DNA of 52,541 nucleotides, taken from the IMG/VR virus record IMGVR_UViG_2531839449_000043. One strand, 5' to 3'. This document shows, piece by piece, positions 21,401-24,400 of the stretch. A program made the position numbers. The stretch is from a virus. Its lineage: Duplodnaviria > Heunggongvirae > Uroviricota > Caudoviricetes. How positions within the stretch are numbered: position 1 is the first letter of the stretch; each line of letters begins with the position of its first letter.

Positions 21401-24400
21401 CTGGCGAAGATCCTCTGTGTAATCGTCGGCATTTCATTTTTAGTCATGCTGGTTGCCATTTTCTTTTCCACCGCCTGGCGAGTCCTGACGTTATCGGGAC
21501 TGGTGGGGTGAAAGAGAGATGAACCGTGTTCTGTGTGTGGTGATTATTGTCCTGCTGGTAGCCTGTGGTGCGCTTAGTCTGGGGCTGAATCATTACCGCG
21601 ATAACGCCATAACCTACAAAGAGCAGCGCGATAAAAAAGTCAGTGAGCTGGAGCTGGCAAATGCAACCATTACTGATATGCAGCAGCGCCAGCGTGATGT
21701 TGCTGCACTTGATGCCAGATACTCGAGGGAATTAGCCGATGCGAGAGCTGAAAATGAAACTCTTCGCGCTGACGTTGCCGCTGGTTACCGCAGCCTGCGG
21801 ATCAACGCCACCTGTCCAGGTCCCGTGCGTGAAGCCACCGGCACCGCCCGCGTGGATAATGCAACCGGCCCCCGACTGGCAGACACCGCTGAACGGGATT
21901 ATTTCACCCTCAGAGAGAGGCTGATCACTATGCAAAAACAACTGGAAGGAACCCAGAAGTATATTAATGAGCAGTGCAGATAGAGTTGCCCATATCGATG
22001 GGCAACTCATGCAATTATTGTGAGCAATACACCCGCGCTTCCAGCGGAGTATAAATGCCTAAAGTAATAAAACCGAGCAATCCATTTACGAATGTTTGCT
22101 GGGTTTCTGTTTTAACAACATTTTCTGTGCCGCCACAAATTTTGGCTGCATCGACAGTTTTCTTCTGCCCAATTCCAGAAACGAAGAAATGATGGGTGAT
22201 GGTTTCCTTTGGTGCTACTGCTGTCTGTTTGTTTTGAACAGTAAACGTCTGTTGAGCACATCCTGTAATAAGCAGGGCCAGCGCAGTAGCGAGTAGCATT
22301 TTTTTCATGGTGTTATTCCCGATGCTTTTTGAAGTTCGCAGAATCGTATGTGTAGAAAATTAAACAAACCCTAAACAATGAGTTGAAATTTCATATTGTT
22401 AATATTTATTAATGTATGTCAGGTGCGATGAATCGTCATTGTATTCCCGGATTAACTATGTCCACAGCCCTGACGGGGAACTTCTCTGCGGGAGTGTGCG
22501 GGGATAATCAAAAACGATGCACACCGGGTTTTCTCATTTTTCACGAGATGGGAGCGATTTCCCGCGAAGCCGCCTGTCCGGTGCGGTGGTGGAAGAAACC
22601 GGATAAAACAACCGCATTGTGCAAATATCGATCAAATATGGTGCTGCTGTGTGAAATCTGAAAAATCACAGCGGTCATTATGCATCAGTTTTTAACACAG
22701 GACGTCAGAACGTGACATGGCAAAGCTGGACTGGAAAAAGCTGGAGCAGGCATTCCGACGCGAACATGCCGAAACGGGAATAACATTACTGGACTGGTGC
22801 CGGAAGAAAAAGATTAATTACAACACCGCCAGAACCCGTATAAAAATGGGCAAAATCGATCATGAAATTGATCATAAAACCGATCATGAAATCGATCATG
22901 ACATCTCAGATGAAGAACCCTGCAATGACGCGGGTTCCGGCGATGAAAAATGCGCAAAAAACTCTGAAAAAAACTGCGCAAATTCGGCAGAAACGAAACG
23001 GATTCGTGGTTCCCGACTTTTACCACCTTCAAACGCTTTTTCTCAGCGAAACACCCACGCCGTAAGACACCGTGGATATGCGAAGTATCTTGAGGCAGAT
23101 AACCTCATGGATGATGCGTCCGACATGGTGCTGTTCGATGAACTGGTGTTCACCCGGGCCCGCGCACTTTCAGTAACTAAGGCACTTAAAGGGATGTTCG
23201 CCGACCTGGAAGAGGCAACTGACGTGGAAACCCGTGTTGCTCTTTACGACAAAATACTCAAAGCTGAACAGGCCCTTGACCGGAATATTGCCCGTATCGA
23301 GTCAATTGAACGCTCATTGCTGACGCTGGACGTCCTGGCTGAGACAGCACCAAAACTTCGTGCTGACCGGGAAAGAATCAACGCCGCCAGAGATAAACTC
23401 AGAGCTGAAACCGATATTCTGACCAACCAGCGTCGGGGCGTTGTTACGCCTGTCAGTGACATCGTGTCATCGCTGCATGAAATGAGTAATTCGGGGAGAC
23501 TGGATGACATTCCGGAAGAATGAACCGCGATGTGATGAGCCGTCAGAAATGACCGAGGCTGAACAACGTCTGTTCATCATGACTAAACTGAGCAATCCCT
23601 GGTGGCGGCTCAATCATCTCTACAAAATACAGAACGAAAAAGGTGAACTGGTCACCTTCAGAATGCGACCGGCGCAGCGCCAGTTGTTCCGGAGCATGCA
23701 CAATAAAAATATTATCCTGAAAGCGCGCCAGCTGGGATTTTCCACAGCCATTGATATTTATCTTCTCGACCAGGCATTATTCATTCCGCATCTCAAATGC
23801 GGGATCGTCGCTCAGGATAAACAGGCTGCCAGTGAAATTTTCCGCACAAAAATTGCTGTACCGTTTGATCATCTCCCTGACTGGCTGAGAGCCTCATTCA
23901 CCATCGTTGAACGTCGTAGCGGTGCCAGCGGTGGCTATATCCTGTTTGGTCACGGCTCGAGTATCCAGGTGGCAACCTCATTCCGTTCAGGTACGGTGCA
24001 GCGCCTGCATATCTCAGAGCACGGCAAAATTTGCGCGAAATATCCGGCTAAGGCGAAAGAACTGCGAACCGGTACGCTTAATGCCGTCTCTGATGAATGC
24101 ATTATTTTTGATGAGTCCACTGCTGAAGGCGTGGGTGGTGATTTTTACGAGATGAGTAACCGAGCACAGGAGATCACTGCATCAGGCTTATTGCTGACGG
24201 CACAGGATTATAAATTCCATTTTTACGCCTGGTGGCAGGATCCTAAATACAGCGCCAGAGTGCCGGAAAGCGGGCTGAAGCTGTCACGGGAAAAAATGAC
24301 GTATTTTTCTGCGGTTGAGAAGGCAATGAACATCACGCTTACTGATGAACAGAAGCAGTGGTACATCAATAAGGAAACTGAACAGCGTGAGGAAATGAAG

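Follow-up and report, generated by a model that had tools for sequence, protein, structure and literature searches.

A GATC-containing hexamer array inside the small terminase gene of Stx-converting phages as a candidate P1-like pac element

In the headful phages P22, Sf6 and SPP1, the pac site lies inside terS, the gene for the small terminase subunit (TerS). The pac site of P22 consists of one asymmetric stretch, about 22 bp long, and not of a hexamer array. Phage P1 presents the best comparison for the locus described here. Its pac comprises 161 bp inside pacA and contains seven hexamers with Dam sites, and both binding and cleavage depend on methylation; synonymous mutation of these hexamers lowers the P1 titre about 9-fold (PMC10028697). 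The P1 record places the cleavage sites about 275 nt from the start of pacA, between four TGATCA hexamers on one side and three TGATCA/G hexamers on the opposite side; a site for integration host factor (IHF) is annotated as well. Our present results concern a row of four 12-bp units, each carrying GATC, inside terS of a Shiga toxin (Stx)-converting phage of the Sepvirinae. The DNA analysed (IMG/VR record IMGVR_UViG_2531839449_000043, 52,541 nucleotides, further called the window) is 100% identical in the array region to phages PA28 and Lys19259Vzw. From comparison with relatives and with P1 we propose, with a probability of about 0.6, that this array is the TerS-recognition part of a P1-like pac site.

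The features needed for this comparison are the following:

22855-22902, plus strand: array of four tandem 12-bp units, each with (C/T)GATCAT, candidate TerS-binding words of pac, encoding IDHE IDHK TDHE IDHD
22858-22897, strand not assigned: four GATC (Dam) sites, starting at 22858, 22870, 22882 and 22894
22717-23523, plus strand: terS, small terminase subunit, 268 aa (phrog_370, E=4.8e-125), upstream of and overlapping terL
22717-22848, plus strand: region coding for the N-terminal three-helix domain (helix-turn-helix-like), aa 1-44, from AlphaFold and weak reciprocal PHROG homology to the N-terminus of P1 PacA
22819-22845, plus strand: putative recognition helix 3 and its end, YNTARTRIK, aa 35-43, covarying with the downstream hexamer type over 105 homologs
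22849-23043, plus strand: region coding for the predicted disordered linker, aa 45-109 (AlphaFold predicted local distance difference test score, pLDDT, below 50), variable in length and sequence among homologs

The four units read, in order, ATCGATCATGAA, ATTGATCATAAA, ACCGATCATGAA and ATCGATCATGAC. Tandem Repeats Finder delimits the array at 22853-22905 (period 12, 4.4 copies, 82% matches, score 78). All units are in frame with the open reading frame (ORF) 22717-23523, where they occupy nt 139-186 of terS and code for residues 47-62. The original prediction, made from the sequence of the window, had described four tandem GATCAT units of 12 bp within the small terminase gene, with GATC sites at 12-bp spacing and an (I/T)DH(E/K/D) peptide repeat; both descriptions are borne out exactly by sequence reading, the former also by Tandem Repeats Finder. 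The words of the array are (C/T)GATCA, once as TGATCA and three times as CGATCA, that is, multiple GATC-bearing hexamers similar to TGATCA/G of P1. In the window as a whole, GATC is under-represented (147 observed against about 203 expected from base composition), and the array is the tightest span of four such sites, 36 bp, the next tightest being 92 bp. The latter, second densest cluster (10744-10836, 4 sites) lies within a helicase-like ORF (10483-12003) in the replication region. The extended word YGATCATRA occurs six times in the window, four of these in the array.

The gene itself is a 933W-type small terminase gene: the match to phrog_370 ("terminase small subunit") spans residues 1-268, and genes for the large terminase subunit and the portal protein follow downstream. 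Search for homologs of TerS found 379 proteins, but no Pfam family covers TerS and no relative with solved structure was found by sequence. AlphaFold, supplied with an alignment of 20 sequences, predicts three N-terminal helices (residues 6-20, 24-31 and 35-41, pLDDT 76-88), a disordered linker (residues 45-109, pLDDT about 33) and a long coiled coil (residues 127-238, pLDDT about 95). The 933W-type architecture is thus predicted to consist of a helical DNA-binding domain, a disordered linker and a coiled-coil oligomerisation region. According to these domain boundaries, the array codes for the first 16 residues of the linker, directly after helix 3 (NTARTRIK).

The N-terminal domain appears distantly related to that of P1 PacA. 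TerS of the window matches the PacA family phrog_1711 over residues 5-94 (E=3.1e-5), a weak similarity of the N-terminal approximately 100 aa alone. In return, PacA matches phrog_370 over residues 3-104 (E=1.9e-4), and direct BLASTP comparison of TerS and PacA gives E=0.009, the C-terminal parts of both proteins being unrelated. The hexamers of P1 are located at pacA nt 193-351, after the N-terminal domain homologous to that of TerS. The premise of the original prediction, that pac often lies inside terS, is documented for P1.

The position of the array was further inspected in relatives of the 933W-type gene. In the N-terminal sequences of 120 homologs, the conserved domain is always followed by short peptide repeats, whose unit is lineage-specific. 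DNA was read in 34 relatives from at least 10 genera, namely 30 genomic loci (Citrobacter, Brenneria, Serratia, Yersinia, Pectobacterium, Aeromonas, Xenorhabdus and others) and four E. coli/Salmonella loci. At the array position, homologous terS genes contain three to seven copies of a hexamer, which in most genera is TGCGCA. This word is present in five to seven copies (three in Xenorhabdus) within terS nt 120-360, whereas the other approximately 3.6 kb of each locus contain zero to two copies in nearly every case and zero to four overall. In the group of Pectobacterium, Brenneria and Symbiopectobacterium, the same part of terS carries five copies of TTCGCA instead (zero or one elsewhere). 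The word (T/C)GATCA is found in Stx phages, in some Salmonella prophages and in one viral contig. Instances of TGCGCA are distributed over all three reading frames (108/34/12) and 23 peptide contexts, coding for SAQ/TAQ, VRK/MRN/LRK and KCAK/NCAN; TTCGCA arrays use several reading frames as well. Spacing of TGCGCA is mostly 9, 10, 12 or 14 bp, with a range of about 7-14.

Selection on the DNA word was assessed with a codon null model, in which the peptide is kept and synonymous codons are resampled from local usage (5000 resamples, 16 relative loci). In TGCGCA and TTCGCA relatives, 0.3-0.9 words are expected and five to seven are observed; in 15 of the 16 loci, none of the 5000 resamples reaches the observed number. 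The sixteenth locus, Xenorhabdus L032, has three words against 0.31 expected (P=0.0024). As the null is so far exceeded, it is the DNA word rather than the peptide that is conserved in these relatives. The same procedure recovers the experimentally defined pac hexamers of P1, used as positive control (seven observed, 2.1 expected, P=2e-4).

The GATCA-type arrays are connected with those of the TGCGCA type by their position and unit context. Three Salmonella loci (L036, L037 and L039) contain three to five (T/C)GATCA units that agree with the window in offset (nt 141) and in 12-bp phase, and GATCA is kept there while the peptide drifts between DQ and DH. Units of the window are in register with these arrays (35/43 identity). 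Because the Salmonella genes share only about 60% protein identity with that of the window, the array must be old and not the product of a recent slip. GATCA-type units can also be aligned with the TGCGCA units of E. coli, the difference being essentially the central dinucleotide (AGTGCGCAAAAA vs AGTGATCAAAAA). Lineages with GATCA arrays retain one or two TGCGCA words, as opposed to five to seven in TGCGCA-type genes; the window keeps two. By these alignments, the Stx array appears to be a TGCGCA-type element with another word. Arrays of TGCGCA, where CG is the central dinucleotide, and of TTCGCA carry no Dam site. In the literature, covered incompletely, we found neither the Stx-phage array nor the TGCGCA/TTCGCA arrays described, which is absence of evidence only.

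An unbiased scan for four GATCA words spaced by 12 bp in viral contigs returned at least 120 loci. Among the matches listed, ten are TerS- or PacA-like genes: five of Stx type, one in contig L045 and four PacA-like (L056, L135, L105 and L118). The PacA-like genes carry five to seven TGATCA in strict 12-bp phase with every spacer different, and exceed the codon null at P<=1e-4. L045 represents a divergent, independent 933W-type lineage. Its five (T/C)GATCA words, spaced by 13, 12, 12 and 12 bp, are located in two frames (V-I-S, then D-Q/D-H), TGCGCA is missing, and the codon null gives P=0.003. Most other matches listed are simple tandem repeats or belong to long proteins built of GDHx/DQVx repeats and unrelated to terminases, and 12-bp-periodic GATCA was rejected as a diagnostic of terminase genes. 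A further observation of this kind is an unrelated viral protein of 100 aa (MKIDEILKLVNAGYSKEEIDKL…), encoded in IMG/VR contigs L149 (8927-9226) and L137 by nine units of AGATCAGAAGnC, which code for DQK(S/T).

Further support comes from the helix that precedes the array. Over 105 classifiable homologs, which represent few independent lineages, covariation of the helix 3 motif with hexamer type is complete: the ARR..K helix is accompanied by the peptide shadow of TGCGCA in 90 of 90 cases and the AKRYIT helix by TTCGCA in five of five. The ART.IK helix is followed by DH/DQ in eight of ten, the other two being one- and two-unit variants of the array. Identities between the window and the two types of relatives change along the gene in a mosaic manner:

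nt 1-54: 53/54 with E. coli TGCGCA-type, 41/54 with Salmonella GATCA-type
helix 3 codons: 14/30 with E. coli TGCGCA-type, 24/30 with Salmonella GATCA-type
array: 19/43 with E. coli TGCGCA-type, 35/43 with Salmonella GATCA-type
TGCGCA pair to ETKR: 30/33 with E. coli TGCGCA-type, 23/33 with Salmonella GATCA-type

As both helix 3 and the array match the Salmonella GATCA-type while their flanks match the E. coli TGCGCA-type, the two travel together as one module. The downstream flank contains both copies of the family's majority hexamer retained in the window, each in the C-A reading frame:

22951-22958, plus strand: TGCGCAAA, first retained copy, corresponding to the KCAK/NCAN pair of E. coli relatives (30/33 identity)
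22975-22982, plus strand: TGCGCAAA, second retained copy, about 55 bp downstream of the GATC array

Recombination with a TGCGCA-type gene may have left these two words behind, or they may form a second arm in a bipartite site.

Taken as part of a pac site, the array would act as follows. The row of hexamers in terS would be bound by the N-terminal helix-turn-helix domains of oligomeric TerS, successive subunits each touching one unit at 12-bp spacing, and would mark phage DNA for packaging. The large terminase subunit (TerL) would then be recruited and cut nearby, and headful packaging would proceed. In the Stx/Salmonella lineage, the word and the recognition helix would have changed together, from TGCGCA to (T/C)GATCA, the core of the P1 pac hexamer. 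Residing in a linker-coding stretch of low constraint, the array would co-evolve with the recognition helix, whose codons end shortly before it. Since GATC is part of every word, the Dam methylation state may govern binding or cutting, as in P1. A Dam-methylation-sensitive site had also been suggested in the original prediction; with four GATC sites present and P1 as a precedent of exactly this kind, Dam control of the array is plausible. TerS binding, cleavage and methylation control are those parts of the proposal that we infer.

Several results weigh against this assignment. In the window, the D-H peptide nearly forces GATCA, so that the codon null expects 2.5 copies and four are observed (P=0.19); the extended unit YGATCAT gives P=0.006, a value computed for tandem units that are not independent of one another. 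The units are near-identical and strictly tandem, as slippage would yield, and database variants of the array have 1, 2, 3, 5 or 7 units (L002; P0020, P0016, P0024, P0001). The abundance of unrelated repeats in the scan has to be counted here as well. The two intact TGCGCAAA words downstream could be the real signal instead of the array. Resemblance to P1 is also imperfect: the P1 helix (TARRYL) is similar to the TGCGCA type and yet its word is TGATCA, so that a universal helix-to-word code was rejected. TerL of the window shows no specific relationship to P1 PacB. At the array, neither a promoter or terminator signal nor an IHF consensus was found, and the latter (WATCARNNNNTTR) is missing from the whole of terS.

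Packaging data belong to the same side of the balance. PhageTerm analysis of Lys19259Vzw, identical to the window in the array region, classified the phage as "Mu-like", i.e. with no fixed termini (PMC7946995). The literature on packaging of Stx phages is inconsistent, since 933W-type phages have also been assigned to a "headful (933W type)" TerL clade (PMC7317114) and labelled "cos phage" (PMC7566468), and the GenBank note for phi367 states "circularly permutated genome". No phage GenBank record linearised inside terS, a proxy for mapped ends, was found; the records are mostly in Stx prophage order. In the literature, covered incompletely, nothing specific was found on a mapped pac site of 933W or another Stx phage. 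The paper on the "preferred initiation site" of Mecenats66 concerns an unrelated fused terminase and is not applicable. The suggestion that the array is a candidate pac element is thus supported by comparison (DNA-level selection on equivalent hexamer arrays throughout the family, covariation with the helix, homology to the PacA N-terminus with pac at the equivalent place), but not by the PhageTerm result, which gave no defined termini.

Methylation is another weak point, as no gene of Dam type (DPPY) was found within the window, although the host has Dam, which is reported to be required for stable lysogeny of 933W (cited in PMC3342100). A Dam encoded by the window was rejected: the only NPPY ORF of the window belongs to a PstI-type restriction-modification pair, and the ORFs of the nin region are NinG and Q. 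In this pair, an Eco57I-like NPPY methyltransferase accompanies a restriction endonuclease of PstI/BsuBI type (Pfam PF06616/PF17728). The pair lies in the immunity region at 6010-8429 (minus strand), next to 8524-9282 (minus strand) and directly beside a CI-like repressor (S24 peptidase plus helix-turn-helix). In PA28 (L040), an adenine methyltransferase of the MT-A70 family (Pfam PF05063, E=1.2e-22) is encoded at 2228-2854, about 7 kb before the start of the window.

Foremost among other explanations, the array could be a codon repeat made by slippage in a disordered linker of TerS, with no DNA signal. The GATC sites would then be a by-product of Asp-His codons, and pac would lie elsewhere or packaging would not be sequence-initiated. 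The nearly forced GATCA, the near-identity and variable number of units, and the disorder of the linker all agree with such an origin, and D-H/D-Q tetrapeptide repeats of like DNA periodicity occur in unrelated proteins. However, the same position in relatives holds hexamers under clear selection at the DNA level, most TGCGCA copies were lost from GATCA lineages, and the array is inherited together with helix 3. Arrays of L045 and of the PacA-like genes show GATCA selected beyond the peptide, and the register with distant Salmonella genes speaks against a recent slip. We consider this origin unlikely, though it deserves to be taken seriously.

Variation in unit number bears on the same question. 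The array region is present in 386 of 5426 complete E. coli genomes. Exactly four units are found in 350 of the 387 matching records, while 17 differ by one unit, those sampled having three. Unit number can thus change, yet four strongly predominates, which in view of the close relationship among Stx phages is no more than weak evidence of selection. The original prediction had offered a copy-number-variable linker as an alternative and free variation of repeat number as an argument against pac. As a description, the former holds true (one to seven units at the start of the disordered linker). As to the latter, the number does vary, four units being the dominant form. Moreover, the linker and pac readings are compatible, as a linker of low constraint is a place where a DNA signal can be embedded.

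Lesions at the same stretch are also known from prophages. In several Stx2a prophages, an element of the IS3 family (IS629-like) is inserted directly after a three-unit array (…GATCATGACATCT / GAACCGCCCCGGG…), at about nt 3295 in L003 (LC727841.1) and also in LC727846, LC727852, LC727858, LC727863 and LC727869; it truncates terS, the remainder of the gene being gone. Public databases contain many frameshifted or truncated terS products with breaks in or just after the array and the A-runs (P0122, P0126, P0132, P0134 and P0144 among them). The tail of P0122 equals an alternative-frame ORF of the window (22862-23065, plus strand). A protein search with the N-terminal module only, aimed at further GATCA lineages, returned just truncated or frameshifted fragments. 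The broken terS products in public databases suggest a hot spot of mutation at the array stretch when prophages decay.

It is improbable that the array is a functional DNA element other than pac, for example a clustered hemimethylated-GATC site (SeqA/Dam-type) for the timing of late-operon expression or of events coupled to replication, or a joint at which terS modules preferentially recombine. Four GATC within 36 bp and the reported need of 933W lysogens for host Dam would suit the former; the mosaic joint at the array and the insertions directly after it would suit the latter. Such roles leave unexplained why words lacking GATC (TGCGCA, TTCGCA) occupy the equivalent place and why the word tracks the TerS helix; furthermore, no promoter or terminator signal accompanies the array, and the homologous P1 element is pac. 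A signal in mRNA, through hairpins of self-complementary GAUC words or a translation pause setting the TerS:TerL ratio, is very improbable: RNA of 22840-22990 folds somewhat more stably than its shuffles (z=-2.4, equalled by 2 of 200 shuffles, a weak effect), but the stems are short and a trivial product of palindromic words, spacing in the TGCGCA arrays of relatives varies (7-14 nt) and no pairing scheme is conserved there, and in P1 the signal is a site in DNA.

The remaining features of the packaging region are the two genes downstream of terS:

23504-25210, plus strand: terL, large terminase subunit, 568 aa (phrog_2 and phrog_24361)
25210-27354, plus strand: portal protein, P22-like (Pfam PF16510, E=1.4e-128)

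Outside this region, tandem repeats with periods of 45 and 9 bp (consensus GCAGGCCCACAGGGACCAAAAGGAGAA…) are located at 33476-33566; they look collagen-like (Gly-X-Y) and probably belong to a tail gene.

Stx-converting phages spread Shiga toxin genes, and with their packaging mode disputed in the literature, a 48-bp candidate makes the question directly answerable. If it is a pac site, pseudo-pac sites could be predicted from it, as could generalized or lateral transduction by Stx prophages. A terS family with hexamer arrays whose word covaries with one helix, linked to P1 pac, also offers a natural series for study of DNA reading by small terminases. Much more tentatively, helix 3 and the array might be regarded as a self-contained, exchangeable specificity cassette. 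Its swap or mutation (TGCGCA to TGATCA to TTCGCA) would re-target packaging and isolate lineages from the terminases and satellites of one another, and GATC words in the Stx lineage would add control of packaging initiation by Dam/SeqA. Were this doubtful extension true, production of Stx-phage virions would be coupled to replication and to host Dam, itself linked to 933W lysogeny.

Among known systems, P22 resembles the window in its portal, whereas no relationship to TerS of P22, Sf6 or SPP1 was seen in sequence (TerS of the window being without Pfam match and without PDB relative). Compared to the TGCGCA and TTCGCA arrays of other 933W-type terS genes, which are irregularly spaced and use all three frames, the Stx array is strictly periodic and confined to one frame; the gene is orthologous, the offset after the helix-turn-helix domain is shared, and the unit context is similar. 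P1 pac differs in several respects. It has two arms (four and three hexamers) about 90 bp apart, flanking the cut and the IHF site, while Stx phages have one tandem block of four; the two TGCGCAAA words lie downstream of this block, at about 55 bp, and are another word. The hexamer starts with C in three of the four Stx units. In Stx phages, TerL is not similar to PacB, nor is TerS to PacA in its C-terminal part, and P1 pac is experimentally defined, whereas the Stx-phage array is known from sequence alone. Common to both is a row of hexamers with GATCA core, each a Dam site, accompanied by a shared DH/DQ peptide shadow. The 12-bp spacing is found in the right arm of P1 pac as well, and both rows are located inside the small terminase gene, just downstream of the region coding for the N-terminal DNA-binding domain.

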